In this document: positions 1,485 through 26,912 of the stretch, in pieces
Position numbering within the stretch: position 1 is the first letter of the stretch
Layout of the letters: each line of letters begins with the position of its first letter
Source: a bacterium
GTDB taxonomy: Bacteria; Hinthialibacterota; Hinthialibacteria; Hinthialibacterales; Hinthialibacteraceae
Direction: 5' to 3'
Length of the DNA: 28,631 nucleotides
Assembly: GCA_041946805.1 (NCBI GenBank)
Contig: JBHGBC010000071.1
Location: forward strand, 1-28,631
Position numbers and translations under genes: made by a program
The notes under the pieces: model-generated
What the model was told of the DNA's origin: nothing
The model's input: the letters and a program-made list of their open reading frames with translations, nothing else
Database searches by the model: none

Positions 1485-1576
1485 CTTTCAACGCCTTTCT
1501 TCCATCTCATGCCCGGAGGGGCGGAATTGGGAAGCCGGGGTGTGTCACACCGCGCGCCGGGTGCTCCACTCCACTT

Positions 1577-3685: not shown

Positions 3686-3755
3686 GGTCCTTTTCTTTTT
3701 GCTCTTGCGTGGGCTTCTTCCATGATCGGCATGATAGTTCAGTATAATAAGTGTT

Positions 3756-3786
3756 GCAGGGTGGATTGAGCGAAGCGGTATCCACC
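3756..3786 (+). repeat. REP-like palindrome GCAGGGTGGAT-TGAGCGAAGCGGT-ATCCACC
   Basis: Perfect 7-bp stem GGTGGAT/ATCCACC preceded by GCAG. It is related to the element at 12891-12923. Confidence 0.55.
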
Positions 3787-4016
3787 TCCTCTCCGGGCTC
3801 CGGAACCGCGTACCCGGTGCGTTGGGCGGGGATCCAGATTGAGGGAAAGCACGCGTGACCCAATCCGGTACGCCTTAAATCCATGATTCACTTCCCACCG
3901 TGTATTTTCGAGCGCTGTGGCAAAAGCCGGGGGGGTATCCATTGGTTTCTGCCCGGAATAATCCTGCCCTTTTTGACCGCCTGCGCTTCGTTTTCATGGC
4001 CTGCCTTGTTCCCCCC

Positions 4017-5459
4017 TCACTCCCTGACCAACGATTGATACACCCGGAGGTACTCGCCGGCGGAACGGTCCCAGGAGAAATCCATCCGCATCCCCCGGCG
4101 CGCCAGGGTCAACCACGCCTCGCGGTCTTCGAAATACGAGATGGCCCGCTCGCAGGCCTCCAGCAGCGCCGCGGGGGTGGCCTCCTCGAAGAGAAAACCG
4201 GTGCCGTCGCGCGATTCCCCCACGTCCAGCACCGTGTCCACCAGCCCGCCCGTGGCCCGCGCCACTGGGACCGTGCCATAGCGCAACGAATACATCTGGT
4301 TTAGTCCGCAGGGTTCATACAACGACGGCATCAGGAACATATCGGCGCCCGCCTCGATCTGGTGCGCCAGGCGGTTGTCGAAGGCGATGGCCACTCCGCA
4401 GGACTCGGGATATTGTTTCTGCAGCCCCCGGTACATTTCTTCGAGTTTGGGATCCCCCGTGCCCAGGATGACCACTTGCGTTCCCCGGCGGATCAGGCTG
4501 GGCAGCACCGCGCCCAGCAAATCCAATCCCTTCTGGTGCGCCAGCCGCGAGATCACGCCCAGGAGCGGCGCGCGTCCCGCCGGTTCGCTCAGTCCGAATT
4601 CCTTCCGCAGCGCCCGCCGGTTCGTGTCTTTCCCCTCTTCCACCGTGTCGATCGAGTAACGGGCCGCGATCTGGGTGTCCACTTCGGGCGACCAGACGCG
4701 GTAATCCACGCCGTTCAACACGCCCGACACTTTCTTTTGGTGCTTCGCCAACACCCCCTCCAATCCGCAGCCGTACGCCTTGGTCTGGATCTCCCGCGCG
4801 TACGTGGGACTGACCGTGGTCACCGCGTCGGCGAACACAATGGCTCCCTTCATCAAGTTCAGCTGATTGTAGAACTCCAACGCCTCCACGTGGTAATGCT
4901 CCCACCCGATCCCCGTCACCGGGAACAGAAACGGTGGAAACACGCCCTGGTAGGCCAAGTTGTGAATCGTGAAAACCGTCCTGATCCCCCCGAGGACCGG
5001 ATGCCCCGCGTGAACCGTTTTGAGGTAGATCGGCAACAGGGCTGTCTGCCAGTCATTGGCGTGCAGCAGATCGGGTTGGCAATGCCCCCGCTCGATGATC
5101 TCCAACACTCCCCGGCAAAAAAACGTGAACCGTTCAAGGTTGTCCGGGTAATCTTTCCCCTTTTCGGTGTACAGCTCGTTCCGGTGAAAAAATTCATCCT
5201 GCTCGATCAGGTACACGGGCGCCGGTTCGTCCGGCAGCCTTGTCCGCGCCAACCGGCCCGCCACCAGAGTGTCCTCGATGGGGACCTGGATCGCGCCCAG
5301 ATCTTCGCACTCGGCCTGCACCTGACGGTATTTCGGCATGACCAGCGACACCTCCACGCCTTGACGGCGCAAGGCCGCCGGCAACGACCGCTGAACGTCC
5401 GCCAATCCGCCCGTCTTCGCGAAGGGATCGATCTCCGATGCGGCTATCAAGACTTTCAT
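4017..5459 (-). CDS. glgA: Glycogen synthase (GT5)
   Basis: KTGGLADV ADP-glucose motif, HANDWQT, FTIHNLAYQG, ISRLAHQKG and MPSLYEPCGLNQMYSLRYGT in a 480-aa ORF. Confidence 0.97.
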   Translation of the reverse strand: MKVLIAASEIDPFAKTGGLADVQRSLPAALRRQGVEVSLVMPKYRQVQAECEDLGAIQVPIEDTLVAGRLARTRLPDEPAPVYLIEQDEFFHRNELYTEKGKDYPDNLERFTFFCRGVLEIIERGHCQPDLLHANDWQTALLPIYLKTVHAGHPVLGGIRTVFTIHNLAYQGVFPPFLFPVTGIGWEHYHVEALEFYNQLNLMKGAIVFADAVTTVSPTYAREIQTKAYGCGLEGVLAKHQKKVSGVLNGVDYRVWSPEVDTQIAARYSIDTVEEGKDTNRRALRKEFGLSEPAGRAPLLGVISRLAHQKGLDLLGAVLPSLIRRGTQVVILGTGDPKLEEMYRGLQKQYPESCGVAIAFDNRLAHQIEAGADMFLMPSLYEPCGLNQMYSLRYGTVPVARATGGLVDTVLDVGESRDGTGFLFEEATPAALLEACERAISYFEDREAWLTLARRGMRMDFSWDRSAGEYLRVYQSLVRE

Positions 5460-7405
5460 GATCGCGCTGTGGCTTCCCCCGATCTGTCCCGTTCTCCGGC
5501 CGGCGGGCCGGCCGTCCCGGCGTTCGCTTCCTCATACCAGCTCAGATCCGGCTGGCGGTCGGGACGCCCCGCCAAGGTTTCCAGGTACCGGACCACGGCT
5601 TGCATCCCCTCGGGCTGCGTCCGGGCCGGATGGGCCTCCAGAAATGACTTCATCAACGCGTCCCGGATTTCCTTCGTCAGGCTTTGGACCACCTGCCGGC
5701 CGATGACGCCGCGCGCCTCCTCGTAGGTCATCGGCCGGGAAGGCTCGATATCCTTCACGTAATATATCTCATACCCAAACCGGTTTTTCGATAGATTATA
5801 CACGCGCCGCGGACGGCCGATTTCTCCCGCCTCCAGGCCCTTCACCGGTTCCACCTGGCTGGGCCCGAGATCGCCCAGCGCCACCTGGCCCAACGGTCCT
5901 CCAGTGACCGGCAAGGAACTATGCTGCGGGAGTTGGGTCAGCGCCTCCTCGAAGGAAAGGCCTTCCCGCATCGCCGCGTACGCCCGGTTGGCTTCCGCCT
6001 CCGCTTTCTGGAACAGGATCAGCGTATCGTAATGCGGGGTGGAGGCTTGCACCGGCGCGCTGAAGAACATCACATGCAGGTCGTACCGGTTGGGGGTCTG
6101 AAAGTCGGGCAGGGTACGGTTTTGTTCATAAAATGCCCGCATTTGTTCCTCGGTCAACGCCCCCCGTTTGTCCACTGCCGACAAGATGTAATCCTGCGCC
6201 AATTGGTGCTGTTCCCAGTACGCCAGCGCCGGGGCAATCTCGTTTTCTCCCCACCCCCGGCCAAGGGCCTCGGCCAGAAACAGCGCCTTGTGCGTCAGGA
6301 ACGACAGGTATTCCTCCCGCGCCTCGGCCGTCCGTTTGCCGTTGGCCGCCGCCAGCCGCTCGAAATCACCCACCGTCAATTGATACACTCCGGGTATGGA
6401 GAGGATCACCGCCTGGGGATCCAGCGCCGCCGTGTCCTTCAGCCAGTCCAGGTTCACCAGCAGGCCGTGTTTCAGTTTCAATTCCTGGGCGTAAAGGAAC
6501 ACGCCTTGATTCTGCAATTCCTGCGTCCGCGTGGCGAGGATCGCGGGGCGGGCTTCTTCATAGGGAATATACTCCGGCGGCACGAAACGCAGACGCTTGA
6601 AGATGAAGAATTGATTCCCGGCCTCGAACACCTCGCTGACCTGCCCGTCCTTGAGCTCCATCAGCCGCCGTTCGATTTCCGGATCCGCCAGTCCGGGTGG
6701 AATTTCATTTTCCTTGCCCCGCTTTTCCGCCGGGGCGTCCGAATAGGTTTGCGCCACCGCCTCGAAGGGCGCGCCCGACTCGAGTTTCCCCCGCGCTTCC
6801 CGCGCCAACGCCTCCGCCTTCTCTCGTCCCCGCGGTTCCATCAGGATCCGGATGCCCTGGACTACATATACGTTTGTGTTCCTTTGAATGAACAACCGGT
6901 TCCGGTTTTCCTGGTAATACCGCTGATTGTCCGCCTCGGTGACCTGGATTTTCTTCAGGACCTCTTCCAGGAAAACCCGTTGAAACAGTTCATCCTGGAT
7001 GACATCTTTCCGGAACGCCTGGAACGTTCCCCGCCGGTCCAGGCCCGCCCCCCGCGCCCGTTCCGCCAGGTCCCGCTCGAAGCCGAGGGTTTTGGCGAGC
7101 TCTTCCATCCGCTGGGGCAGATCCTTCAACGCTTGACCGGCCGCCACTTCCGCGAAATCGTGCGATTCCTGGAACGCGATCAGAAAATCCCGCGCCGTCA
7201 CTGTCCGGTCTCCCAACGTCATTACCACCGCGTCGGGATCCGGCCGCGCCAGCTCTTCTTCCCGTCGTCCGCATTGAGCGCCGAGTATCACTAGCAATGC
7301 AGCCAGCCCGGCCGCCCAACATACAGTTCGCGCGTGGTTCACTCTCATCGGCAATCTTTTGCGATCCTTTCTCCGCTCAATCCGTGCCCCCTCCGTGCCC
7401 TCCAT
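5456..7405 (-). CDS. Periplasmic or lipoprotein peptidyl-prolyl isomerase (PrsA/SurA-like, two parvulin-like domains)
   Basis: Hydrophobic signal ending LGAQC (possible lipobox; alternative ATG at 7348), 'VVMTLGDRTVTARDF', 'FEAVAQTYSD', 'LKDGQVSEV' and a second 'GLSFEEAL...LEAGEIGRP' unit. Its stop overlaps the glgA start (ATGA). Confidence 0.8.
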   Translation of the reverse strand: MEGTEGARIERRKDRKRLPMRVNHARTVCWAAGLAALLVILGAQCGRREEELARPDPDAVVMTLGDRTVTARDFLIAFQESHDFAEVAAGQALKDLPQRMEELAKTLGFERDLAERARGAGLDRRGTFQAFRKDVIQDELFQRVFLEEVLKKIQVTEADNQRYYQENRNRLFIQRNTNVYVVQGIRILMEPRGREKAEALAREARGKLESGAPFEAVAQTYSDAPAEKRGKENEIPPGLADPEIERRLMELKDGQVSEVFEAGNQFFIFKRLRFVPPEYIPYEEARPAILATRTQELQNQGVFLYAQELKLKHGLLVNLDWLKDTAALDPQAVILSIPGVYQLTVGDFERLAAANGKRTAEAREEYLSFLTHKALFLAEALGRGWGENEIAPALAYWEQHQLAQDYILSAVDKRGALTEEQMRAFYEQNRTLPDFQTPNRYDLHVMFFSAPVQASTPHYDTLILFQKAEAEANRAYAAMREGLSFEEALTQLPQHSSLPVTGGPLGQVALGDLGPSQVEPVKGLEAGEIGRPRRVYNLSKNRFGYEIYYVKDIEPSRPMTYEEARGVIGRQVVQSLTKEIRDALMKSFLEAHPARTQPEGMQAVVRYLETLAGRPDRQPDLSWYEEANAGTAGPPAGERDRSGEATARS

Positions 7406-7533
7406 GATTCAATCCGCCTATCCACCGCCACCCCGTTTATCATGGTCTATCCGGTTCCTGAAAAACCTCCGCGGCCTCCGCGTCTCGTCGGTGAAATAGA
7501 ATGTTTCCCTTCCCGGCCGGCATAGCCTCCCCC

Positions 7534-8430
7534 TCAATGCGTCCACAGGTTGATCCGCACGATCAAGTCCGCGATCAGGCCCAGGACGAACATCTGCGCG
7601 CCGGCCATGGCCAGCACGATGAAGGTGGCGTCCATGAATTGTCCGGTCAACGGTTTGCTGAACAGCAACACCGCCAGCGCCAGGAGGCCCAACAGGAAAC
7701 TGAGGGGGAGAAACACGTTGAGCGGACGCAGCAACACCACCGTCCGCAAGATCACCAAAATCATGTTCCATGTGTCCCGGATGGGATGAAACTTCGACTT
7801 CCCCGCCCGCTTCTGGTACTGAATGGGGTGAAAATACACCCGCTTCCCCATCGAAAGGAACGCAACCGTAATCGTGGTCGTCAATGAAAATCCGTCCGGC
7901 AACAGTTTCTGAATCCTCTCGAGCGGCGCGCGCCGGATGGCCCGCAGTCCCGAGTTCAAATCCGGTATGGGCCGCCGCACCATCCATCCCGCAAACTGGC
8001 GGATCAGCCACTTGGCCGGCCGCCGCGTCCAGGGAACCCGGGCTTGAGGACCCAGCCGCGCCCCCACGACCATGTCGTATTCTTCCAAATGCCGGATGAC
8101 CGCCAAAATCTCCTCCAACCGGTACGTCCCGTCCGAATCGATGATCACCACCGCCTCGCCCCGGCTATGCTCCAGCCCGGTCTTGATCGCCGCTCCGTAA
8201 CCCCGGTTCTCCTCGTGCCGGATCACGGGATAAGGCTGCCCCCGCAGGATATCGGGCGTGCCGTCATCCGAGCCGTCATCCACCAGCGTGACTTCCATGG
8301 AATAGGGAACCGACTCGATCACCCGCTGGATTTCCGATAAAAAGGCGGGCAACCCCTCCGCCTCGTTATACACGGGGATAATGAGGGAGACACCCTGGCT
8401 GACCGGGGATTCCGGGGACGATTCGGCCAT
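7534..8430 (-). CDS. Glycosyltransferase family 2 (polyprenol-phosphate glycosyltransferase, DPM-synthase/GtrB-like)
   Basis: SLIIPVYNE, VDDGSDD, NRGYGAAIKTG, IDSDGTY and DLNSGLR motifs, plus two C-terminal TM helices. RBS GAGGAG upstream. Confidence 0.9.
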   Translation of the reverse strand: MAESSPESPVSQGVSLIIPVYNEAEGLPAFLSEIQRVIESVPYSMEVTLVDDGSDDGTPDILRGQPYPVIRHEENRGYGAAIKTGLEHSRGEAVVIIDSDGTYRLEEILAVIRHLEEYDMVVGARLGPQARVPWTRRPAKWLIRQFAGWMVRRPIPDLNSGLRAIRRAPLERIQKLLPDGFSLTTTITVAFLSMGKRVYFHPIQYQKRAGKSKFHPIRDTWNMILVILRTVVLLRPLNVFLPLSFLLGLLALAVLLFSKPLTGQFMDATFIVLAMAGAQMFVLGLIADLIVRINLWTH

Positions 8431-8538
8431 CCTGCTCCTCGCTGCCGGCGGGGCATGGCTCTCCCGCCCGGACTCACTGTAACCCTAGCCTTTGTGCGCC
8501 GCAAGTCCGGGACATTCTGTCATTTTACCGTAGGGATG

Positions 8539-8567
8539 TTGTGATTTTATGAGAATTCCTCTATAAT
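8539..8567 (+). promoter_or_regulatory. Putative sigma70 promoter TTGTGA-N17-TATAAT
   Basis: Consensus -10 at 8562-8567 with a 17-bp spacer to TTGTGA, about 50 bp upstream of the ATG at 8616. Confidence 0.55.
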
Positions 8568-8615
8568 TTCCCTTGTTCCCAAATGACTTTGATTTATAGG
8601 GGTTAGGGTGTGAAC

Positions 8616-8975
8616 ATGAACGAGGAACGCCTTTTGCGGTGGATCTCGGAAAAAGATCCCCGGTATCATCTGTACGCCTACCGGTTTGTTTTGGAAGCGT
8701 TGCGTTACACCCAATTCGTCTTCAAAAAACCCCGGCATATCACCGGCCAGGAACTGCTGACCGGCATCGCCCGCCTGGGACGCGAACGCTTCGGAGACAT
8801 GGCGCTCACCGTTTTTCAGGAATGGGGAATCCACCATTCCCGCGATTTCGGCAATATCGTCTTCAATCTGGTGGAATTGGGGGAAGTCAAGAAAACCGCC
8901 GAGGACCGCATCGAGGATTTCGACGCCGGTTTTGACCTGCAAGCCGAACTCAGCCGCGCTGAAATAGCCGGCTGA
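8616..8975 (+). CDS. Minf_1886 family protein (small family associated with PVC bacteria)
   Basis: Signature 'AYRFVLEAL...HITGQELL...FGDMALTVFQEWGI...DFGNIVFNLVE'. The ATG at 8616 is preferred; the ORF track starts at GTG 8610. Confidence 0.85.
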   Translation: MNEERLLRWISEKDPRYHLYAYRFVLEALRYTQFVFKKPRHITGQELLTGIARLGRERFGDMALTVFQEWGIHHSRDFGNIVFNLVELGEVKKTAEDRIEDFDAGFDLQAELSRAEIAG

Positions 8976-14099: not shown

Positions 14100-14609
14100 T
14101 CAGCCTCTTGACTGGGTCTCATGCTCAGCGAGGAATCGCTCGACGTCGCCGATGAATTGGCCGGCTTTCTCTTCGATGCACGCCGTCAGGCGGTCGAGGC
14201 CGCCAAAGTCGAAGTCCTCGGCCAGGCCGTACTCCAGGATCGAGTCAACCCCCTTGGCCGGCGCCACCAGGCGGTATGCAGTCCAGCGGCTGTCCCGGAA
14301 CAACTCCCAGTATTTCCGTTGAACCTGCCTGTTTCTTCCCGCGAGCCATATTTCGAATCGGAACGCTTCGTAATTGAATACAATCGCGGCCTTCAAGTCC
14401 CGTTGCTTGAGCGGCGGCGGGATAATGGCGAAATAGGTCATATCCATGCATCCCTGATAAATCCCCGAAATGGAGTGATTCGGGTAAATGTTCTTGAAAT
14501 GCGTCCGCAAATTCATCATGTACCCGAGCAGCGCTCTGTATGCCTTTTGGATCGACCCGGTCCGAAGCTGGCCCCGAAGGTAATTCATGTCTTCCTGTAT
14601 CGATGGCAT
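14100..14609 (-). CDS. Conserved hypothetical protein (DUF7000-like)
   Basis: 169 aa with RBS GAGGAG. 'IQKAYRAL..YMMNLRTHF...YQG.MDMTYF...IVFNY..FRFEIWLAGRN..VQ.KYW' resembles this family as I recall it. Confidence 0.7.
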   Translation of the reverse strand: MPSIQEDMNYLRGQLRTGSIQKAYRALLGYMMNLRTHFKNIYPNHSISGIYQGCMDMTYFAIIPPPLKQRDLKAAIVFNYEAFRFEIWLAGRNRQVQRKYWELFRDSRWTAYRLVAPAKGVDSILEYGLAEDFDFGGLDRLTACIEEKAGQFIGDVERFLAEHETQSRG

Positions 14610-14699: not shown

Positions 14700-17600
14700 T
14701 CACTTCACTTCCAACTCGCTCGGCGGAGCGGCCTGCTTCTGCTCCGGATTGTAATATTCGTAAATCACCGCTTCCGGGGCCTTGGCCGTCATGGGCAGCG
14801 TCGCCTTCATGGGAACCTCGAGATCCAACGCCGCGCCACCTTCCATCGACTCCAGGTAGATCAACAGCTGCCGGGCGGTCAGCGTGTACCGGGCGATGGT
14901 TTTTTGGTCCACGTACTCGTCCAGCGTGGGCCGTTCCACCCGGAATCCGGGCGGGATGCCCACATCGATCATCACCATCTCCACCCGCTCCGGCCGCTGG
15001 TTCTTCGCGTGGATCCGGCAGGTCACCGTATCGTTGCGCCGCAGTTCCTTCCGGTCGTAATCCACCTGGATGTCAAACGGCGCGGCCGCGGTCTTTACCT
15101 CGCCCCACGGTTCGAAATATGTGCCTACGACCTGGTACAGCAGGCTGCCCTCCCCCTCCAGGTCGATTTCGATGGTTTGTTCATTCCCTTTAACGTATGG
15201 GCTCAAATCGATCTGCCGGAACAGGTCCGCGTTCTCCGGCGTGACCGCCAACCGCGCCGCGTCCTGCCCGTTCACCCGCGCCAGGACCGTGGCGTTGACC
15301 TCCCGCGTCGCCTGCTTCAGTGACAAGACCATCGCCTTGAGGGCCAGCACCGTCCCGTGCGTGGTCCCCCAGGTGCCTTGGGGATCCTTCTGCTGGATCA
15401 GCCAGTTAAGCGCCTTTCCCGTCTCGGTGTTGAACCGCCCGTCCTGGATCAGGGCCATCGCCGCCCAGGCCGTGGCCTCTACCGAGGCATGATCGCCCCG
15501 CGCATAACTCATGCTCGCTTCGGCGGCCCAGTGCATCTCGTTGCCTTGGATTTCACCCAGATTCACCAGTCGTTGGACACATTCCCGGGTAATATCACTG
15601 TCAGGAACCAGGGCTTGCAAGGCGTTGCACAGAATCCCCAGCGTGTAGGCGTCTGTCGCGTCTCCGGCGTGCTCCAAGAGATATTGCGTAGTGGGTCCGA
15701 GCTCGGATGGCGCCTCCGTCCGGCTGAGCGCCAGCGCCACGTAGGCCGTGGTCAGGAGCGGATTGTCCTGGATGCTTTGCCACATCTCGGCATGCGCGTA
15801 GTTTTCGTCCGGATCCCAGGTCCCGTCCGGCCGCCGTTGATCGATCAGCCAGCGCGCCGTGCGGGGGATGAGGTTTTCGTCCACCGGGTACACCTCGTTC
15901 ATGTCGGCGAATTCCATCAGCCCATACGCCGTCAACACACGCGTGGCCGGGGGATTGCCGAACACCTGGAATCCGCCGCCGGGGATCTCGAACGTCAACA
16001 GCCGCTGGTAGCCCAGGTTGATATACTCCCGCGCCTTCATCTCGATTTCCGGCGTGATGTTCTGGGTTTGCTTCATGTAATTCAGCGCCAGCACGTTGGG
16101 ATACGTGGTCGAGCTGGTCTGCTCGAAACACCCGTTGGGCATTTGCAGGATCGAATCCAGCCCCTCCACCACCTGGCTGAAGATGCCGGGATAAATCTTC
16201 ACGAACAATTTGTCCGCGCCCGGAACCCGTCCTTCGGGGAACATCACTGTGTGCTTCACGCCGTTGTCCAGCCGCCCGTTGAACGTGATGTACCGCGCTT
16301 CGCCGTTGGGCCGCACCTCGATGTCCCGCCCCGTGGCGTCGCGGTCCTCGGTTCCCCAGGCGTACACTGTCAGCGGGTTCTTCCCCAGCCGGGTGGCGCG
16401 GACACGGTACGACACCGAGGTCACTTCATTGGCCGCCACGCTCACGCGGCGCTCGAATCCGCCTTCCAGCAGGTCAAACCAGGGCGCGCGTTCCAGCTCC
16501 ACTTGCACGGTCTGCTCGGCCGGCAGGTAGTTGTACACCGCCACGGGAATCGTCACTTCGTCGTCCTGGATCAACGCCACCGGCAGGTCCAGATCCACGA
16601 AGAAGGGCTTGAACACCTTCAGCGCCGCCGTGGAATCGCCCACCGCCCCGTTTTTCGCGTTGGCCATCGCCGACATCCGCCAGGTGGTGATCGAATCGGC
16701 CACGGGCAGATTCAGCATCGCCAGCCCTTGCTCGTCGGTGATCAATTCGGGTGTGTAGAACAGCGTCTCGGGGAAATATCGCCGCACCCGCACCGATTTG
16801 TCTTTCACCGCTTCATTACGGATAATCTCGGCGGGAGAAGCCGGAGTAGTGGCCATCTGCTGTTCCAATTCCGTGACCTTGACGATCTCTTCCCGGATTG
16901 CATGTTTCAATTCGCGGGATTCCTCGTCTTGTTTAAGAAGGCTCTCACGTAGTTGCGTGCCGTCCACCTCGCCGTTCACCGCCAGCGGCAGGGTTTCCTC
17001 TTCACCCAGGGCCACGGCTTTATCGGGATCGAGCACCGAGGCCGGATCGGGGACCTGAAGTTCATTCGATAAATCCAAATTCCCGAGTTGTTGAGCGGGA
17101 ACGGCTTCATGGACTTTTTCTCCAACAAAAATCCCACTTTCATCCTGCCCTGCCAGTTTCCTGAAATCCGCTCCGGCGAGTTCGGGCTGGTTGTTTTTTT
17201 CAACATTGGGAAATGCCAGAGATAGCGATTCCTTCAAATCCATTGGCATCGCTCCGGCGGGGGCCTCTTCCGGCGCGGCCATCATCCCGTAGCCGCCCGC
17301 CATTTCGGCTTCCACTTCGACCCTAGCCAGCCGTTCAGCGCCCTTGGCCATGTCCAGTATTATGGGCGCGCCCACGATGATCTCCGGCTGCTGGATTCCA
17401 TCCAATAAAGCACTCCCCTTGTCCCCAACGGCGCGCCCCCGTTCCATGGGGCCGCCCATCCTGCGGAGGTTGAATCCCCTCCGCCCGTAGCGGTCCACCG
17501 GGACGTTCGGCACGGCGTAGAGGTACTGAGCCTGGTCACCGCCCGGTCCGGCCCTGCCTCCCTTATCACCCTGGAGCGCCGGTTCCTGGGGCTGGGCGGC

Positions 17601-20228
17601 ATCCGCTATTCCCGTGGCGGCGGGGACTTTTATGAAATACCACCGCGCGTTAGACCGTCCGTCCGCGGCCATGATCTGGTAATAATCGGCCGGGCCTTGG
17701 ATATCGTCCGCGGTGTTGAACTTCCCATCCGGCCCCGCGCTGGAGACGCCGACCCGGTTGTCCCTAAAGTCCACGCGGAAAGGTACGCCCCAGGGATCCA
17801 CCGTCTTCACGGCGTCCGGCGGCAGGTTCAGCGAGAGCAACAGCTCCTCCGCATCCTGTTCCGGCGTGTTCATGGGCAGCGAAGTCTGCCTCAGGTAATT
17901 CTGCAGGTTGTATACCTCCTGCCTGGCTTGTTCGATCTTCGTGCTTCCCGTGAAGATGTTGAGGGCGTAGGCGGAACTGACGTCCAGTTTGGAGAGCAGC
18001 GCTTTCGAGAGATTCGCGTTCTTCTCATACTCCACCGCCGACAGCCGCACCACCTTGTCCAGCGCGTAGCCGTGGATTTCCACCTTGGGCTGCAGCAGTT
18101 CCTTCTCGATGGCGAAGAACACCTTGGCGAGGCCCGGCTCCTTCTCGCTCAGGCTGTACACGCTTTCGTCCACGATGTGCAGGCCCATCGCCGCCCGCAC
18201 CGGCTCGCCCGATCCGCTCCGCACCGCCACCCGCAGCCGCGCCGGCTGGCCCGGTTCGTATTGCTCCTGGTCGGAAGTGATCTCGATCCGCAAGTCGTCA
18301 CTTCGCAAAACCACCACCTGCCGCGTGTCCCGCACCAGGTTGCCGTCCGGCCGGATGACATACGCGCTCAACGCCAACGTTCCCGAGAGCGCATTGTCCA
18401 AGGGAACGGCCAGCGCGGCGCGGCCGTCTGCCAACGGCAGGGTTTTGGTGAGTACCGTTTGCCCATTTTTGATGATGTCCAGAAATGCGGTCTCCTTTTG
18501 GAAAGCGGGCGAGAACACCGTGAGGTTCATCGCCTGCCCCACCGTATAGACGCCCTTGTCCACCCGCAGCAACAGGCTTTCCACTGCGTTCTCCGTCTCC
18601 AGGTCCTTGACCAGCACCGCCCGCCGGCCCTCCTCTTCCGCCGTGATGCTTAACACCGGCATATCGGGCCGCGGGACGGCCACGTTTTGCGTCATCGGGA
18701 CGCCGGGAGTGGATTCCACGGCTTGGGGAATCAACGTCACGGAGGCGATGCCGTTCGCGTCGCACTGCAATTCCACGGATTTGGGCAGGAACCGCGAATC
18801 CACCCGCAGCTTCGGCTTGGCCACGCTGCCGTCGGGATGCGACGCCACCAGATAGATCTCGTTCTCCACCCCGGGGACCAACTTGCCGCTTTCGGGAATC
18901 GCGTCCACCTGGATGGGATCCACCGCCACGGGGAACGTATGGATCTTCTGCTCCTCGTGATCGGCGCTGTCCCGCACCCGCACATCGAGCTGCACGATCG
19001 TATCACCCTTGAACAGCGGCTGGCCCACGAGTTTATCGGGGATGACGAACGAAAACTCGCCGCGCCCCTCTTCACCGGTCTCGATATTCACCGTTTCGAA
19101 TTCGTTGAACCCCACATCGAAGCAGTTGGCGGTGATCTTCACCTTCGCCCCCGCCACCGGCTTGCCGAAAAAGTAGCGCGCTTCCACGTTCCCCTTCACG
19201 GATTCGCCCGGCGCATAGAAGGTCCGCTCCGTGTGCACCGCCACCCGGAACTTGGGCAGCACATATTCATACACCTGAGCGGTCTTCTCGGTCACTTCTT
19301 TATCCAAAATTGCCTTGAAGCGGTACTCGCCCTGGTTGACCTCCTCCGCCAGCTGAAAATCCGCCGCCACGATGCCGAACTCGGACGTGGTTTTAATCTC
19401 TTTGAAAACTTTGTTGCCCTTGCCGTCGAAGACTTCCAGCGTCACCGCTTTCTCCGCCAGGGGGACGCCCGTAGCCTGGTTGACCACCAGCGCCCGGATG
19501 TGAATCAACTGCCCCGGCTGGTACACCGGCTTGTCCGTGGTGAGAAAAATCCGGGTTCCGGGAACGATCTGCACCTCCGAGGTTACTTCGTCCTTGCCGT
19601 AGGCCGATTCAATCGTCACCGTCAGCGTCTGGCTGCCTTCCAAGGTTCCCGGCACTGCGAACCGCACATCCGCGTTGCCCCGCTCGTCCGAAACCGCTTC
19701 CGCCAGCGTGACCGCCTCGCCGCCCTGGGCGGGAACACACCGCGCGGTGACGGCCGCCCCCGCCACCGGTTCGTTTCCCGGAGCGCGGGTCACCACCACC
19801 CGCAAGACCGCCTGACTCCCGCTGAGCCATTGCGGCTGGCCGATCACATGCACGTCCTGCGTTTGACGAGACGCCCCCAGACGCTTCAGCCAGGTATGGC
19901 CCATCAGGTCGATCCGCACCCGGCACGTGTCCATTTCCGGAGTCCCGGCCGCGACCGGCATGGCCACCTGCTCGGATTGTCCGCCGGGAAACAGCACCAG
20001 TTTCTTTTCGACCTTGGCTAAAGACCGGGAACTCTCGTCCAGCAAGGTCACCACCAGGTCCCCCATCGCTTGCGTATCCAACGCGTTTTGCAAGGGAAGC
20101 GTGATGAGGAGCGCGTCCGCCTTCCGCTCCGTTTGGATTTGGTCCTTGTCCAGCGTGATTTCGCCCTGGCTCGCCCCTGGCAGCAAGACGGCGAACCACA
20201 GCATCCATATCGGTATCGTTTTCATCAT
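14700..20228 (-). CDS. Secreted alpha-2-macroglobulin / thioester-containing protein (TEP)
   Basis: 1842 aa with a signal peptide, MG domains (TDKPVYQPGQ, EYVLPKF, VDESVYSL), an A2M domain (RYFPETL, DSITTW, PFFVDLDLP), the thioester MPNGCFEQ (GCFEQ at 16119-16133) and a C-terminal receptor-binding-like domain (MIDVGIPPGF, YEYYNPE). Confidence 0.95.
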   Translation of the reverse strand: MMKTIPIWMLWFAVLLPGASQGEITLDKDQIQTERKADALLITLPLQNALDTQAMGDLVVTLLDESSRSLAKVEKKLVLFPGGQSEQVAMPVAAGTPEMDTCRVRIDLMGHTWLKRLGASRQTQDVHVIGQPQWLSGSQAVLRVVVTRAPGNEPVAGAAVTARCVPAQGGEAVTLAEAVSDERGNADVRFAVPGTLEGSQTLTVTIESAYGKDEVTSEVQIVPGTRIFLTTDKPVYQPGQLIHIRALVVNQATGVPLAEKAVTLEVFDGKGNKVFKEIKTTSEFGIVAADFQLAEEVNQGEYRFKAILDKEVTEKTAQVYEYVLPKFRVAVHTERTFYAPGESVKGNVEARYFFGKPVAGAKVKITANCFDVGFNEFETVNIETGEEGRGEFSFVIPDKLVGQPLFKGDTIVQLDVRVRDSADHEEQKIHTFPVAVDPIQVDAIPESGKLVPGVENEIYLVASHPDGSVAKPKLRVDSRFLPKSVELQCDANGIASVTLIPQAVESTPGVPMTQNVAVPRPDMPVLSITAEEEGRRAVLVKDLETENAVESLLLRVDKGVYTVGQAMNLTVFSPAFQKETAFLDIIKNGQTVLTKTLPLADGRAALAVPLDNALSGTLALSAYVIRPDGNLVRDTRQVVVLRSDDLRIEITSDQEQYEPGQPARLRVAVRSGSGEPVRAAMGLHIVDESVYSLSEKEPGLAKVFFAIEKELLQPKVEIHGYALDKVVRLSAVEYEKNANLSKALLSKLDVSSAYALNIFTGSTKIEQARQEVYNLQNYLRQTSLPMNTPEQDAEELLLSLNLPPDAVKTVDPWGVPFRVDFRDNRVGVSSAGPDGKFNTADDIQGPADYYQIMAADGRSNARWYFIKVPAATGIADAAQPQEPALQGDKGGRAGPGGDQAQYLYAVPNVPVDRYGRRGFNLRRMGGPMERGRAVGDKGSALLDGIQQPEIIVGAPIILDMAKGAERLARVEVEAEMAGGYGMMAAPEEAPAGAMPMDLKESLSLAFPNVEKNNQPELAGADFRKLAGQDESGIFVGEKVHEAVPAQQLGNLDLSNELQVPDPASVLDPDKAVALGEEETLPLAVNGEVDGTQLRESLLKQDEESRELKHAIREEIVKVTELEQQMATTPASPAEIIRNEAVKDKSVRVRRYFPETLFYTPELITDEQGLAMLNLPVADSITTWRMSAMANAKNGAVGDSTAALKVFKPFFVDLDLPVALIQDDEVTIPVAVYNYLPAEQTVQVELERAPWFDLLEGGFERRVSVAANEVTSVSYRVRATRLGKNPLTVYAWGTEDRDATGRDIEVRPNGEARYITFNGRLDNGVKHTVMFPEGRVPGADKLFVKIYPGIFSQVVEGLDSILQMPNGCFEQTSSTTYPNVLALNYMKQTQNITPEIEMKAREYINLGYQRLLTFEIPGGGFQVFGNPPATRVLTAYGLMEFADMNEVYPVDENLIPRTARWLIDQRRPDGTWDPDENYAHAEMWQSIQDNPLLTTAYVALALSRTEAPSELGPTTQYLLEHAGDATDAYTLGILCNALQALVPDSDITRECVQRLVNLGEIQGNEMHWAAEASMSYARGDHASVEATAWAAMALIQDGRFNTETGKALNWLIQQKDPQGTWGTTHGTVLALKAMVLSLKQATREVNATVLARVNGQDAARLAVTPENADLFRQIDLSPYVKGNEQTIEIDLEGEGSLLYQVVGTYFEPWGEVKTAAAPFDIQVDYDRKELRRNDTVTCRIHAKNQRPERVEMVMIDVGIPPGFRVERPTLDEYVDQKTIARYTLTARQLLIYLESMEGGAALDLEVPMKATLPMTAKAPEAVIYEYYNPEQKQAAPPSELEVK

Positions 20229-20314
20229 GACAACCTCGAATCGCTTTTTAGATCATCCACTGACCGCTTCACACTGATCGCATCGCGCGGGATCCACAGA
20301 ATATTGATTCTTCC

Positions 20315-20438
20315 GCCCTTTCAGGGCTTCCCTCACCCTGACCCTCTCCCAGAGGGAGAGGGAAATGAAAAGGAGGGATTGTTGTTGGACTCATCCCAGG
20401 GCGTTGCCCTGGGCTAGTTTCTTCCGCGCCTTCGGCGC
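20315..20438 (+). repeat. Composite palindromic repeat cluster containing copy 2 of the CCCTCACCC element (20330-20362)
   Basis: Four hairpins: GCCCTTTCAGGGC, CCCTCTCCCAGAGGGAGAGGG, CCCAGGGCGTTGCCCTGGG and GCGCCTTCGGCGC. Confidence 0.8.
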
Positions 20439-20523
20439 TCAAGGATTGTTCATCCATCGCAGTCTAAAAGGTTCATCATACGGATTAAGGAATATCTACT
20501 TTTTCCATCTCCCCGAAGATGAT

Positions 20524-22191
20524 TCATTCGCTCAAGCTGATCGCGCCGCCCTTGCCCGGATCGGCCTTCAACTCCGGACGCAGATGCCCATCCAGGCCGG
20601 TGGGAATCGCGCTGAATTTCCAGGCCGCCTCCGGACGTAAGTGATAGAGTTTGATCAGGATTTCGTTCCAGCCCGCCCTAAGTGGCAACATCACGGCGTA
20701 TTGGTCTTTCTGAAAATCCTGGTTCGTGATTTGGCCCCACACGGGATCGTTGTTGCACCAGATCCGGATGCCATCGCCGAATCCGACCTGCAAAAAGATC
20801 TCCTCGTCCGTGGCGCTGTGGATGTAGGTCCGCGCAAAGGCGCTCGCCGGGGCGGAGGGATTCTTGAATTCCTGCCGCAGGTCGATTTCCAGCCCGCGTT
20901 CCCGCCGCAGTTCGTACCGCGGTTGGGTCCGGGGAGTCCGCCGCGGCTTGAGCCACGAGGTGAAACGGGATTTTCCATCCTCCTCTGGCAGCGTCTCCGC
21001 CGGCAACGGCCCCATCAGCCACCAGGATTCGATGTAATACGTGTCCCGCAGGGTGTTCTCCACTTGCGCCAGCTTCCGCGAGGCTTTCTGCCGCTCGGGA
21101 TGCTGTTCCGGAAACTGCGCCATCACCCGCCGGCACCAGGCCATGGCCCGGTCCGGATGATCTCGCCGCATGATCTCGCCGAACTCCATCGCCAGCCGCG
21201 CGAACTCCAGGCTGGCCGGATACCGCGCCGCGTACGCCTCCAATTCGTTCTCGGCTTGCTCCACGGTCTCCGGACGGTTCAACCACAACTTGACCAGCGA
21301 CTCCCGCGCCTGCCGGCAATAGGTCTCCTCCTCCGGAAAACGGCTGATCATCCGCTGGTAAGTCCCCACCGCTGTCTCTATGTCGCCCAGCGCCCGGTGC
21401 GCGTCGGCGATGAGGATCAGCGCCAGCGCGATCCAATAATTCTCGCCGGGATACTGTTTCTCCACGTCCTCGAGCATCAGGATGGCGCTTTTCAGCAGCG
21501 TCTTCTGGTCTTCGCCGATTTTGGTAAAGGCGGTGTTATAGAGTTTCAACCCGGTGCGGAACAACTCCCCGGCTTTTTGATACTCGTCCGCTTCCTCCGG
21601 TTTCGATGCCAACTTCGCCCTGGGCTCCCCCTGGAAGGCACGGACCGGCCGTCCCGCCGCCAGCGTTTCGGATTCGGGGGTAGAAGCCGGGCTGTCTCCC
21701 CGCATCGCCGCCGCTACACCCAGCGTGGGCGCCTCGGCCGGGGCGGAAGGAGCATCATGAGTTTGGTCCATCGCCACGGATGGGGCGGCGGGAGGAACTA
21801 CAAGTCCCGCTGCCGCTGGCTCGGGAACCGTCTCGTTCCGGACGGTATGCCGAAGTGTAACGGCATGCTGCAAGGTATAGGGATACACCCCGGCGAGCAG
21901 CAGCAGGAACGAGGCCGCCGCCGCGAACTTCATCCAGGTCCGTATCCGCGGCGGCCGTATCGGCAGTTCCTCGGCGAACGGTTCCGCGGTCACCTTCCGC
22001 TCCAGCCAGACGGGCACGGCCGGATCATTCATTTTCCTCAGGATGGCATGCGCGCGTTGCACTTCGCCCCACTCCGCCGCGCAGGCGGGGCAGTCCGCCA
22101 GGTGCTTCTCCAGCCGGGCGGTTTCCTCCGGATCCGGTGGTTCATACAGCCGTTCCATCATCAACGCGCGCGCGGTTTGGCATCGCATCAT
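20524..22191 (-). CDS. Zinc-finger (zf-HC2/ZAS) transmembrane anti-sigma factor with extracytoplasmic TPR repeats and a C-terminal beta-domain
   Basis: C-x(n)-HLADCPAC (HxxxCxxC), one TM helix (FAAAASFLLLLAGVY), a Pro/Ala linker, TPR-like repeats ending YP/FP, and a 'WWLMGPL...YIHS...DGIRIWCN...LRAGWNEILIKL' beta-sandwich. It overlaps the sigma stop (ATGA). Confidence 0.88.
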   Translation of the reverse strand: MMRCQTARALMMERLYEPPDPEETARLEKHLADCPACAAEWGEVQRAHAILRKMNDPAVPVWLERKVTAEPFAEELPIRPPRIRTWMKFAAAASFLLLLAGVYPYTLQHAVTLRHTVRNETVPEPAAAGLVVPPAAPSVAMDQTHDAPSAPAEAPTLGVAAAMRGDSPASTPESETLAAGRPVRAFQGEPRAKLASKPEEADEYQKAGELFRTGLKLYNTAFTKIGEDQKTLLKSAILMLEDVEKQYPGENYWIALALILIADAHRALGDIETAVGTYQRMISRFPEEETYCRQARESLVKLWLNRPETVEQAENELEAYAARYPASLEFARLAMEFGEIMRRDHPDRAMAWCRRVMAQFPEQHPERQKASRKLAQVENTLRDTYYIESWWLMGPLPAETLPEEDGKSRFTSWLKPRRTPRTQPRYELRRERGLEIDLRQEFKNPSAPASAFARTYIHSATDEEIFLQVGFGDGIRIWCNNDPVWGQITNQDFQKDQYAVMLPLRAGWNEILIKLYHLRPEAAWKFSAIPTGLDGHLRPELKADPGKGGAISLSE

Positions 22192-22817
22192 GCTTCGATC
22201 CCCCGTTCTTCCAGCCCGCGCCGCAGCGCCAGCAGCGCATAGTGCATCCGGCTCTTCACCGTGTTGGCGGAGCAGCCCAGCACCCGGCCGATTTCTTCAA
22301 AGGTCAACGATGTTTTCTCCCGCAGCAGCAAGACCTCCCGCTGCGCTTCGGGCAACGATTGAATCACTTCTTCGATCGCCTCCTGCACTTCGCTCCGGTA
22401 ACTTTCCTCCCGGGGCGAGCAATCCGGGCTGGGATAATCGTGAATGCCCGGCGCGTCCGGATCGTCCTCCCGCGCGGGATACAGTTGGATGATTTCCGCG
22501 CTCTTTTTTTTCCGCATGGCGTCGATGCAGGCCGACCGGGTGAGGGTGAACAGCCAGGTCGTGAACTTGGCCTTGGGTTGGTAGCGTCCCCGGTTCCGGA
22601 CCAGGCGGTAGAAGACGATTTGGAACACATCGTCCACCGGGTCGGAAGCCGGCAGGAACAAACGGATAAACGCGTACACCGATTGCTTGTGCCGGTGGAA
22701 TAGCTCTTCGAAGGCCTCCGCCTCGCCCCGGGCGTAACGCAGCATCACCTCTTCATCCGAACAGGCCGGCAGGTCCTTGATCTCTTCCGTGGGTTGTTCC
22801 ATGACCGTGCTTTGCAT
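22188..22817 (-). CDS. ECF RNA polymerase sigma factor
   Basis: 'SDEEVMLRYARGEAEAFEELF', region 2 'DDVFQIVF...FTTWLFTLTRSACID' and region 4 'LPEAQREVLLLRE...FEEIG..LG...NTVKSRMHYA'. The start is ATG 22817 or 22802; the ORF track uses TTG 22847. Confidence 0.95.
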   Translation of the reverse strand: MQSTVMEQPTEEIKDLPACSDEEVMLRYARGEAEAFEELFHRHKQSVYAFIRLFLPASDPVDDVFQIVFYRLVRNRGRYQPKAKFTTWLFTLTRSACIDAMRKKKSAEIIQLYPAREDDPDAPGIHDYPSPDCSPREESYRSEVQEAIEEVIQSLPEAQREVLLLREKTSLTFEEIGRVLGCSANTVKSRMHYALLALRRGLEERGIEA

Positions 22818-22829
22818 GTTGTGGAATGG

Positions 22830-22855
22830 AACGCCGGGAAACGCCAATGGTTTTA
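22830..22855 (-). promoter_or_regulatory. Putative autoregulatory ECF promoter TAAAAC-N16-CGTT
   Basis: Matches the AAAC-N16-CGT pattern of SigW/SigM/SigX-type ECF promoters and lies directly upstream of the sigma ATG. Confidence 0.5.
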
Positions 22856-22976
22856 AAGATTCTTGGAATATTCAATGATGAATAAGGGCTGGAAGGGCGC
22901 TACTCCCGGACGATGATTCCCCCCATGGTATCAGAGGATGCCATCCGGGTGAAAGCGTGGAGGCCAGATCCTTGTG

Positions 22977-23145: not shown

Positions 23146-23178
23146 CCCTCTCCCTCTGGGAGAGGGCCGGGGTGAGGG
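23146..23178 (-). repeat. CCCTCACCC element, copy 3 (inverted)
   Basis: The reverse complement reads CCCTCACCCCGGCCCTCTCCCAGAGGGAGAGGG. Confidence 0.85.
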
Positions 23179-25256: not shown

Positions 25257-26912
25257 ATGAAACGATGGATTCTGCTCACCAGTTTTTTAACGCTTTTCAG
25301 CCCACTCGTCTTCTCCCAGCCCATCGGGATCTTCGATGACCAAGTCAGCATTGGTGACGATGCCGGCGCCGGGAGCGCCACGTTTGCCAACGGGATCTAT
25401 GACATCGTCGGTTCCGGAAATGATCTCTGGGGATCGGCCGACGGCTGTTATTATGTTTACCAAGCCGTGACCGGTTCCTTCTTGATCACCACGGAGGTCA
25501 ACTGGGAAATGAGCGGCCCGCGCGATGGCCACGAGTGGAAAAAGGCGGGCTTGATGGCGCGCGACAGCCTGGAGTTCCCCGATGATCCCTCCGCCAGCCA
25601 CGTGACCGGAATCATCATCCGCAGCCAAGGCTCCAACCTGGAGCGCCGCCTGGATTACAACGGCGGTTCCCAGGACATCGAAGTGCAGGAAAAACGCTCC
25701 GATGAAACCAACGTCATCCAACTCATGCGCGTCGGGAACGTATTCACCATGCTGCGCGGCCTGACCGACGGTACGTTCCGGGTGATCGGTTCCACCGAAG
25801 TGCCCATGTCCGACACGATCATGGTGGGGCTGGTGGTCACCTCGCACGATACCAGCACGACGGAACGCGCGTTCTTCAAGGACGTGACCTTGCAGTCGCT
25901 GGATGTGGCGGTGGCGGTCACGCGGACCATCCCGTCGTACAAAGTGGAAGCGGGCGCGGCATTGGCTGGAGTGACACTGGGTTTGGAAGTGGAAACCGGA
26001 AAAACCACGGACGCCACGGTTACGGAAAAAGTGCCCGAAGGATTTACGGTTTCCAACCTGCAACCCTCCGCGGGTACGGCCAACGCCACCGCGGACGGCG
26101 TCATTACCTGGACAGTTCCCGGCGCGGCCGGCTCCGGCGCGGCCTTGAGATACGATGCCGCCGCACCGGCGGCCGCCGTGGGTGTCAAGAGTTTTTCGGG
26201 ATCCGCCAAATCCGGATCCAGTGAATTCTCCACGGGAGGCAATTGGGAAGTGACCGTGGTTCCTCCCCAATCCAACGGCTTTGGGATCTTCACCACGCAC
26301 GAGGATGTTTTCGACAACGAAACCGTGGAGGGGGACGCCGGCTATGATCCCAACACGGGAACCTACGTCGTGATCGGCACCGGCAATGACATCTGGGGCG
26401 CGGCCGACAATTTCCATTTCCTGTATATCGAGGTTTCCGGCAAGGTGTCGCTCAAGGCCAACTGCCAACTGATCGTGGGACAAGGCCATACCGAGGACGC
26501 CAAAGCCGGCCTCATGGTGCGGGATGAAATCGATCCCTCTTCGCCGCATGGCATGTCGATCATCCGGTCCTGGGGACGGGATTTCGGCCCGTTATGGCGG
26601 GATGCCTTTGCCAGTGAGTCCGGCGAGGACGAAAATCTGAATGTGCCGGGCGGCACGGTGGCGGGACGTCAGAGCGGAACGATCGAAATCACCCGCGATG
26701 GCACAAGCATCGGTTATTATTATTATGACGCCGCCACGGGAGAACGGGTGGAAACCCTCGTTCATGAAGTGGCGGAAATGACCGATCCCGTCTACGTGGG
26801 ATTCGCCGTAACCTCTCATAACGCGGGATATTACAGCACCGGGATCTTCACTAACGCCGTGCTGACCGTCAACGATAAGCCCGTGCCGGTGTTGGATTGG
26901 GCGTTGTATTAG
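25257..26912 (+). CDS. Secreted protein with two ConA/DUF1349-like beta-sandwich repeats separated by an Ig-like domain
   Basis: RBS AAGGAGA and signal peptide MKRWILL...VFSQ. Internal repeats: G[ST]GND[LI]WG.AD, KAGLM.RD and VG..VTSH. The ATG at 25257 is preferred over TTG 25203. Confidence 0.85.
   Translation: MKRWILLTSFLTLFSPLVFSQPIGIFDDQVSIGDDAGAGSATFANGIYDIVGSGNDLWGSADGCYYVYQAVTGSFLITTEVNWEMSGPRDGHEWKKAGLMARDSLEFPDDPSASHVTGIIIRSQGSNLERRLDYNGGSQDIEVQEKRSDETNVIQLMRVGNVFTMLRGLTDGTFRVIGSTEVPMSDTIMVGLVVTSHDTSTTERAFFKDVTLQSLDVAVAVTRTIPSYKVEAGAALAGVTLGLEVETGKTTDATVTEKVPEGFTVSNLQPSAGTANATADGVITWTVPGAAGSGAALRYDAAAPAAAVGVKSFSGSAKSGSSEFSTGGNWEVTVVPPQSNGFGIFTTHEDVFDNETVEGDAGYDPNTGTYVVIGTGNDIWGAADNFHFLYIEVSGKVSLKANCQLIVGQGHTEDAKAGLMVRDEIDPSSPHGMSIIRSWGRDFGPLWRDAFASESGEDENLNVPGGTVAGRQSGTIEITRDGTSIGYYYYDAATGERVETLVHEVAEMTDPVYVGFAVTSHNAGYYSTGIFTNAVLTVNDKPVPVLDWALY

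Follow-up and report, generated by a model that had tools for sequence, protein, structure and literature searches.

How does a bacterium decide when to make a thioester protease trap? The deployment of bacterial alpha-2-macroglobulins (A2Ms) is poorly understood, and the described cases include a lipoprotein linked to pbpC and the Mag complex under RetS/RsmA control. The locus considered here lies in a 28,631-nt stretch of DNA (the window; contig JBHGBC010000071.1 of assembly GCA_041946805.1, to which positions below refer), taken from a 6.7-Mb genome in 315 contigs that is 97% complete. Within 14700-22857, the minus strand carries three genes, for a sigma factor of the extracytoplasmic function (ECF) type, a zf-HC2 anti-sigma factor, and a thioester A2M, which raises the question of whether the trap is wired to a switch of its own. 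We favor, with somewhat better than even confidence, the reading that the trio is an operon in which the anti-sigma senses the A2M and proteases trigger the release of the sigma factor, and that this arrangement is conserved in Ca. Hinthialibacterota. The initial annotation of this DNA had reported a co-oriented ECF sigma, zinc-finger anti-sigma, and secreted thioester protein (TEP), an ATGA overlap between the first two genes, and a 295-bp gap before the third. All of this is borne out: the three genes share the minus strand, the anti-sigma start overlaps the sigma stop by ATGA, and 20229-20523 measures 295 nt. The elements of the locus are as follows.

22826-22857, minus strand: ECF-type promoter TTTAAAACC-N15-CGTTCCAT (-35 AAAACC at 22849-22854; -10 CGTT at 22830-22833)
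22188-22817, minus strand: ECF sigma factor, 209 aa (Pfam regions 2 and 4, TIGR02937; start ATG at 22817)
20524-22191, minus strand: single-pass anti-sigma factor, 555 aa (Pfam, NCBIfam, alignment of 19 orthologs)
20229-20523, minus strand: intergenic region of 295 nt with G+C-rich hairpins and a repetitive extragenic palindrome (REP)-like element
20330-20362: the REP-like element in the operon gap
14700-20228, minus strand: secreted metazoan-type A2M/TEP, 1842 aa (Pfam, PDB sequence search)

The operon, its promoter, the domains of its products, and the thioester motif are drawn from sequence comparison. The phylum-level set comprised 35 genomes of Ca. Hinthialibacterota (= OLB16), which was once part of Omnitrophota and whose type species is a polysaccharide degrader with abundant protease genes (PMC9324843, partial text). 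Full-length anti-sigma orthologs occur in 18 of the 19 other genomes of the window's family and in all four genomes of a second family of the order; the one family genome lacking a full-length ortholog is 86% complete and gives a match of 2.6e-5 only, and genomes of other families give weak matches, mostly to the beta domain alone. The initial annotation had called for a neighborhood comparison and had made linkage in related genomes the point on which its reading would fall; the linkage holds, with an A2M ortholog directly after the anti-sigma gene, on the same strand, in 22/22 relatives that have the anti-sigma ortholog. The sigma gene precedes the anti-sigma gene in 21 of these, and the contig ends there in the remaining locus. 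The A2M gene is truncated by a contig end in three loci and carries in-frame stops in one genome. Identity to the window genes is 48-84% for the sigma factor, down to 22% for the anti-sigma, and 42-84% for the A2M, and the genes outside the triad differ from locus to locus. Because identity is low while the gene order is kept and the flanking genes differ, the triad arrangement is, on these comparisons, under selection, beyond recent common descent alone.

Wider scans returned two metagenome contigs with the same arrangement, their figures near-identical to those for the locus of one relative (G001), and, with a profile from a 10-sequence anti-sigma alignment run over genome contigs, 11 loci that apparently belong to genomes already counted. 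A protein search gave seven anti-sigma relatives at E ≤ 1e-5, one of them from Ca. Hinthialibacter antarcticus. Candidates for the triad beyond the two families were rejected: the f3 genome has an A2M-like gene (35% and 25% identity in two segments) with no adjacent sigma or anti-sigma gene, and the f4 ortholog of the A2M (44% identity) is cut by a contig end. In one relative (L037, G017:C53:243700-258567), several in-frame stops and frame changes run through the anti-sigma and A2M genes; either the copy is decaying or the assembly, of a genome that is 82% complete, is poor. In another (L030:6815-10075, G012), the N-terminal 1080 residues of the A2M ortholog have no BLAST alignment to the window protein; the Pfam domains MG2/MG3/BRD are the same.

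The sigma factor consists of regions 2 and 4 only (Sigma70_r2, 56.6 bits; r4, 51.9 bits) and passes the family model TIGR02937 (112 bits against a cut-off of 42.9), as expected for the ECF type (group IV). Among solved sequences, it comes nearest to 6in7_B ("RNA polymerase sigma-H factor") and, at 1.5e-16, 8z6g_B, with SigW and RpoE also close; the best NCBIfam equivalog, PRK12513, reaches 188 bits, under its cut-off of 206. Regulated proteolysis of the anti-sigma is what frees sigma factors of the sigma-H/RpoE/SigW type. Upstream of the sigma gene, the motif TTTAAAACC-N15(16)-CGTTTCAT is present in all 20 loci with upstream sequence (19-31 bits), a typical ECF arrangement (-35 AAC / -10 CGT) amid otherwise unalignable DNA. 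With TTTAAAACC-N15-CGTT in 20/20 loci and an overlapping anti-sigma gene, the locus bears the sequence signature of ECF autoregulation. The sigma reading frame is open from 22847, and the start had been placed at 22847/22855; the ATG at 22817 (MQSTV...), giving 209 aa, is more likely, because the promoter ends 12 nt before it and the context GATGCAA is conserved there. That spacing also means that the sigma mRNA would be near-leaderless.

A promoter matrix built from 13 other genera only was run over the window's genome and compared with three shuffled genomes. The sigma promoter is the top site in the whole 6.7 Mb (26.9 bits vs 23.4 for the next; shuffled maxima of 24.1, 21.8, and 20.9), and when the 500 nt ahead of each of the 34 ECF sigma genes above the family cut-off are compared, the motif stands before this gene alone (28.3 bits; the runner-up has 12.3). 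Apart from the second-best site, taken up below, the remaining genome sites of 21-24 bits were rejected as further regulon members, being no better than those of the shuffled genomes; from the frames downstream of them, the sites C300:16136 and C175:2592 appear to lie inside genes. A 22.3-bit match in the window itself (25257-25289, minus strand) is probably due to chance, as no gene begins in the 250 nt that follow it.

Does the A2M gene belong to the same transcription unit? Eleven of 20 loci have short gaps between the anti-sigma and A2M genes, of 3, 6, 9, 10, 22, 24, 24, 24, 28, 32, and 58 nt; the remaining nine, the window genus among them, have gaps of 166-562 nt. No ECF motif in the 20 gaps scores above 8.3 bits, which rules out a separate ECF promoter for the A2M, and the window gap shows no terminator-like site on the minus strand and no sigma-70-like site. 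A GAGG Shine-Dalgarno sequence is conserved ahead of the A2M ATG. At least seven of the nine long gaps, the window's included, contain palindromes of the CCCTCTCCC...GGGAGAGGG type, and several G+C-rich hairpins, none with a U-tract, are predicted to form in the window gap (z -1.9). REP elements occur inside E. coli operons. The initial annotation had pictured a TEP gene induced separately, 295 bp downstream; the simplest reading of these sequences is one tricistronic, autoregulated operon, with REP-like repeats inserted in some lineages, including the window genus. Given that the A2M has no ECF promoter of its own and that the gap is 3-58 nt in 11/20 loci, it most likely relies for transcription on the promoter through which the sigma gene is autoregulated. 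The palindromes, CCCTCTCCC-N-GGGAGAGGG(-N-GGGTGAGGG), number 749 copies genome-wide, and a second window copy lies at 23146-23178, upstream of the sigma promoter.

The exact stretch occurs only in what is probably its source metagenome. A digester metatranscriptome contains contigs of a relative, ~88-90% identical, on parts of all three genes. One contig from the RNA library (21629-22696) bridges the sigma/anti-sigma junction, and others reach into the gap at either end, one side running from the A2M start as far as 20343 and the other from 20523 inward. All assemblies, those of DNA included, break at the repeat (20314-20364), where the summed depth is 760-8872. The RNA contigs are compatible with transcription of the unit, without establishing a single transcript.

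What kind of trap does the operon encode? The A2M contains the Pfam domains MG2, MG3, A2M_BRD, A2M, TED_complement (164 bits), and A2M_recep, and the parts discussed below are placed as follows.

20163-20228, minus strand: signal peptide of the A2M
~16779-17981, minus strand: hypervariable bait region
15330-16181, minus strand: thioester domain (TED)
16119-16133, minus strand: thioester motif GCFEQ (A2M residues 1366-1370, within PNGCFEQ)
14733-14984, minus strand: receptor-binding domain

By its sequence, this is a candidate thioester protein: a CxEQ motif lies inside the TED, and GCFEQTSS is invariant in 18/18 orthologs, across which the TED core is conserved at 60-87% (also given as 82-87%). 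The least conserved part of the protein is residues ~750-1150, between A2M_BRD (554-693) and A2M (1155-1245); residues 851-1150 show 14-25% identity and 13-42% gaps among the 18 orthologs. Such a hypervariable, gap-rich stretch of ~400 aa between the BRD and A2M domains has the sequence character of a bait region, and Pfam finds no family in it at E ≤ 1. The spacer between these domains is 460 aa long vs ~120 in a paralog, and this length, together with the high variability, argues for a trap with an unusually long, fast-evolving bait. Described as "giant" at the outset, the protein is at 1842 aa of ordinary A2M length (paralogs, 1710 and 1779 aa), and the expanded bait is its unusual part. 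Within the bait, the short stretch DPWGVPFRVDF...SSAGPDGKFNTADDI (window 17570-17700, A2M residues ~843-885) is conserved. Its motif, DPWG...SAGPDG...DDI, looks like the C-terminus of a type II secretion pseudopilin, a resemblance that was rejected because searches did not support it: Pfam has no family for it at E ≤ 1, and BLASTP comparison with both pseudopilins of the VIT-vWA cluster described below gave E 0.79 and 36.

A search of PDB sequences returned CD109 (4e-66), human A2M (6e-66), A2ML1 (8e-63), C3 (2e-45), mosquito TEP1 (1.5e-43), and Salmonella A2M 4u48 (2e-15); by these scores, the window A2M is far nearer the animal proteins than the Salmonella/E. coli type. Its signal peptide, MMKTIPIWMLWFAVLLPGASQG, contains no Cys, and hence the protein is no lipoprotein of the E. 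coli kind. The absence of an adjacent pbpC, stated in the initial annotation, agrees with the scan of the neighboring open reading frames (ORFs) in the window, which match no transglycosylase or transpeptidase (penicillin-binding protein, PBP) family; no genome search was aimed at pbpC. The two other TED-bearing A2M paralogs of the genome (1710 and 1779 aa) have no ECF sigma gene beside them. The shorter one (C257:20423-27633; L056:8424-15634, minus strand) is of metazoan type (TED_complement, 241 bits), with a co-oriented gene for a 655-aa TPR protein upstream; the two may be another TPR-partnered A2M, here with no sigma.

The remaining component is the anti-sigma factor, for which zinc-finger, TPR, and beta domains had been described; all are present.

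22078-22182, minus strand: zf-HC2 anti-sigma domain (33 bits; cut-off, 22.2)
~21871-21936, minus strand: transmembrane segment (hydrophobic stretch, ~residues 86-107)
21037-21594, minus strand: TPR domain
20527-21036, minus strand: PA14-like beta-sandwich, at the C-terminus

The N-terminal zf-HC2 domain carries H30-x3-C34-x2-C37, as in class I (zinc-binding, ZAS) anti-sigma factors, and a variable Pro/Ala-rich linker, itself speculatively a protease target, separates the transmembrane segment from the TPR domain. The ectodomain (residues 200-555) was modeled with a predicted local distance difference test (pLDDT) score of 87.7 and a predicted template-modeling score (pTM) of 0.74 as a TPR solenoid of nine helices with a beta-sandwich after it. 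Matches to the solenoid, at Z 15-17, are to generic TPR proteins, including periplasmic YfgM and BamD. These matches swamped the fold search with both domains, and the beta domain was therefore folded alone (pLDDT 84.7). Its best structural match is 6qe7 (Z 11.5, root-mean-square deviation 3.6, 134 residues aligned), the tandem PA14 sensor of an RsgI anti-sigma (PMC6852018, partial text). The GH2 N-terminal sugar-binding domain (Z 10-11), the PA14 adhesin 6m8m (Z 10.1), and CBM35 come next, in a range of Z 8-11, with the top matches tied within ~1 Z unit; Pfam finds no family in the beta-sandwich at E ≤ 1. Weak relatives of the domain in the window's genome are found in a DUF4838 protein, a HEAT-repeat protein, and a 3017-aa TPR protein.

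What might this ectodomain sense? The complex of the anti-sigma ectodomain (alignment of 19 sequences) with A2M residues 1250-1842 (alignment of 18), MG1-MG7 being omitted for size, was predicted with interaction prediction scores from aligned errors (ipSAE) of 0.54/0.64/0.64 vs 0.00 in three controls. The runs share at least 88% of contacts, and the partner pLDDT is at least 79. The corresponding mark is reached by 116 of 157 solved complexes and by 2 of 215 mismatched pairs, a rough guide only, as own alignments were used. Like the second target described below, the contact is a prediction; it places the beta-sandwich on the TED through two patches.

15414-15596, minus strand: predicted contact patch on the TED (A2M residues 1545-1565 and 1597-1605; two helices)
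20728-21000, minus strand: predicted contact patch in the beta-sandwich of the anti-sigma (residues 398-417, 476-488, 501, and 516)

On the A2M side, contact residues R1553, G1597, E1602, and K1605 are invariant or nearly so; on the anti-sigma side, R476 is kept in 17 of 19 orthologs. In the second family, the two sides of the patch have changed in concert, a suggestive pattern but not independent evidence. We are not aware of a solved structure that pairs a TED with a PA14-like domain. Of the ligands entertained in the initial annotation for the ectodomain, the TEP is thus the one strengthened, by a controlled prediction; the PA14/sugar-binding fold of the C-terminal sensor domain leaves a glycan signal as open as a protease signal.

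Would the sigma factor have other targets? The second-best site in the genome (23.5 bits) lies on another contig, 37 nt ahead of a gene for a secreted 757-aa VIT + vWA protein, which is followed by genes for a 1199-aa FG-GAP protein and two N-methyl pseudopilins. This cluster (C113, ~37294-43806; L077:3294-9738, minus strand) has no sigma gene near it, and its VIT + vWA combination is like that of the inter-alpha-trypsin-inhibitor heavy chain (ITIH). The VIT-vWA protein has matches in 13 of 20 family genomes. At nine of these 13 loci, a promoter-motif match of 13-26 bits stands at the same place, two more show the core AAC-N16-CGTT by eye, and the two loci without the motif hold distant matches (33-34% identity). 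As no other ECF gene of the genome carries the motif, we lean slightly toward including the VIT-vWA/FG-GAP/pseudopilin cluster in the regulon of this sigma factor.

Taken together, these elements suggest a circuit, for which we infer that proteases give the signal, which way the switch turns, and that proteolysis frees the sigma factor. The ECF sigma would transcribe its own near-leaderless gene from a single promoter, and the same transcript would carry the translationally coupled membrane anti-sigma and the secreted A2M with its oversized, fast-evolving bait. At rest, the N-terminal zf-HC2 domain would keep the sigma factor at the membrane, and the periplasmic TPR domain and PA14-like sandwich would bind the TED of the A2M, so that a product of the operon would be part of its own sensor. 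Cutting of the bait by proteases would change the shape of the A2M and with it the occupancy of the anti-sigma, which would then be removed, probably by regulated proteolysis as for RseA, RsiW, and RsiV; such proteolysis is established for RseA, MucA, and RsiW. The freed sigma factor would raise transcription of the operon and probably of the VIT-vWA/FG-GAP/pseudopilin cluster. Either native A2M shields the anti-sigma and its consumption induces, or reacted A2M is the trigger. The complete chain, in which the anti-sigma is the receptor for the TED of its own operon and bait cleavage leads through sigma release to more trap along with VIT-vWA, FG-GAP, and pseudopilin proteins, is a tentative proposal whose chances we put well below even.

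Several observations weigh against this reading. Conservation is lower at the contact residues (0.55) than over the remaining TED (0.77), and the prediction may have placed a foreign beta-sandwich where the A2M's own MG domain packs on the native TED. If an MG domain natively covers the site, it would be free only after activation, which could fit a receptor for reacted trap or an artefact. The predicted sensor fold is that of sugar-binding modules, and the zinc-binding Cys residues are lost in 7 of the 19 anti-sigma orthologs, which implies that zinc is not essential to the family. For co-transcription in the window genus, no RNA or DNA contig spans the REP-like element (20314-20364), the gap hairpins could attenuate read-through, and the RNA evidence consists of contigs from a relative, whose depth cannot rank genes and whose library can also hold DNA. 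The site of the A2M may be the periplasm or the outside of the cell, and the whole system is known here from sequences and predicted models.

These points give weight to other explanations. The sensor fold is the starting point for a glycan-sensing circuit, in which the PA14-like domain would bind a polysaccharide or cell-wall glycan and the A2M would be an output only, made on contact with a particular substrate or prey surface likely to carry proteases. The best match of the domain is the PA14 biomass sensor of RsgI (6qe7), with GH2, PA14, and CBM35 modules next (PMC6852018, partial text), and a related species of the phylum is described as a degrader of polysaccharide and protein (PMC9324843, partial text). 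However, a fold alone shows no ligand, the more so with the top matches tied within 1 Z and no Pfam family at E ≤ 1; weak copies of the domain occur in HEAT and TPR giants without a recognizable glycosidase domain; and the complex prediction, whose controls were clean, brings this domain into contact with the A2M TED. We therefore regard glycan sensing as unlikely, though it is the alternative that we take most seriously. The same predicted contact could serve instead as a structural anchor, with the anti-sigma mainly tethering a soluble A2M to the inner membrane, as a substitute for the Mag complex or for the lipid anchor of E. coli-type A2M, and the sigma factor merely fixing the proportions of the proteins, with no external signal. 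The lack of a lipobox, the predicted binding to a membrane protein, and the strict conservation of the gene pair would all suit an anchor, and MagD sits in an inner-membrane complex (PMC3735191, partial text). Yet an ECF promoter that is autoregulated and works with an anti-sigma is built to be a switch, and the sigma-binding domain, kept in 19/19 aligned orthologs, would be needless for a simple anchor, which leaves this explanation improbable.

Finally, the A2M might owe its position to adjacency only, with an unrecognized promoter of its own in the 295-nt gap and expression independent of the sigma factor. The promoter scan covered sigma-70-type sites and this ECF motif, and the window genus and eight other loci have room for such a promoter in their long gaps. 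Against this, the order is the same in all 22 genomes, gaps of 3-32 nt in 10 loci leave no room for a promoter, and at least seven of the nine long gaps contain inserted REP-like repeats; we consider adjacency alone very improbable. The A2M-sensing operon with protease-triggered sigma release is the reading that we carry forward.

How does this operon compare with known systems? Its parts are of known kinds, the thioester A2M as much as the ECF sigma paired with a class I anti-sigma; their combination is new to the literature searched. A search pairing ECF or extracytoplasmic function with macroglobulin found nothing relevant by title or the start of the abstract and no precedent, and the word "macroglobulin" is absent from the main text and one partial supplement of the ECF reclassification paper (PMC7826278). 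The protein shares with metazoan A2M, CD109, insect TEP, and C3 the Pfam domain set, an intact CxEQ, and the best sequence matches, whereas it is bacterial, has a bait ~400 aa longer, and is encoded in an operon with a sigma and anti-sigma. Like the type I bacterial A2Ms (E. coli ECAM/YfhM and Salmonella Sa-A2M), it would be a thioester-bearing protease trap of a diderm. ECAM, however, is a lipoprotein encoded beside pbpC (PMC3735191, partial text), whereas the window A2M lacks a lipobox Cys, has the anti-sigma gene upstream and a DUF7000 gene downstream, and matches bMG10 at 17.4, under the cut-off of 26.2 (4u48 match, 2e-15). With type II (P. aeruginosa MagD, magABCDEF), it shares a soluble, signal-peptide-bearing A2M with operon partners, MagD being part of a membrane complex. 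MagD has no CXEQ and is under RetS/RsmA control (PMC3735191, partial text); the window A2M differs in its invariant thioester motif, its sigma and anti-sigma partners, and its probable ECF control, and does not fall into type II.

In circuit logic, the nearest systems are FecIRA and RsiV. In Fec, the product of a target gene of the ECF sigma itself signals to the periplasmic domain of the anti-sigma (FecI-FecR-FecA), and in sigmaV-RsiV, ligand binding to the anti-sigma ectodomain licenses the proteolysis of RsiV. The present system differs from both in that a soluble thioester protein takes the partner's role, filled there by a TonB-dependent transducer or lysozyme, and in its TPR + PA14-like ectodomain. 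The RsgI proteins of cellulolytic clostridia are likewise membrane anti-sigmas with a C-terminal PA14-type fold (6qe7, Z 11.5; PMC6852018, partial text); here, the sigma is an ECF factor and not sigma-I, the N-terminus is zf-HC2, a TPR domain is added, and the predicted ligand is a protein.

The genes around the trio encode a DUF7000 protein, a URO-D/MtaA-like methyltransferase, glycogen enzymes, peptidyl-prolyl isomerases, and glycosyltransferases, and nothing in these flanking genes hints at a functional link to the trio. The DUF7000 gene (14100-14609, minus strand) has a Shine-Dalgarno sequence and begins 90 nt past the A2M stop, with no terminator separating the two. In the window's genome, the operon's transcript may carry it along, and it was not found at the matching place in the loci of 20 relatives.

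If the proposed circuit is correct, it would represent a dedicated transcriptional switch for a thioester protease trap, perhaps the first known in which the switch takes its report from the trap itself. The recognition of reacted A2M or C3d by animal receptors would then have a counterpart in bacteria. The circuit is compact, with one promoter, one sigma factor, and one predicted contact with named residues, and is thus directly testable. It also raises the question of why a biopolymer degrader that secretes many proteases would need a trap that is inducible and whose 400-aa bait evolves fast. Other extracellular modules of animal-like kind (VIT-vWA, FG-GAP) are probably tied to the same sigma factor, and the whole would then be a self-contained, inducible, protease-sensing defense regulon built from animal-type extracellular modules, ITIH-like and integrin-alpha-like ones among them.

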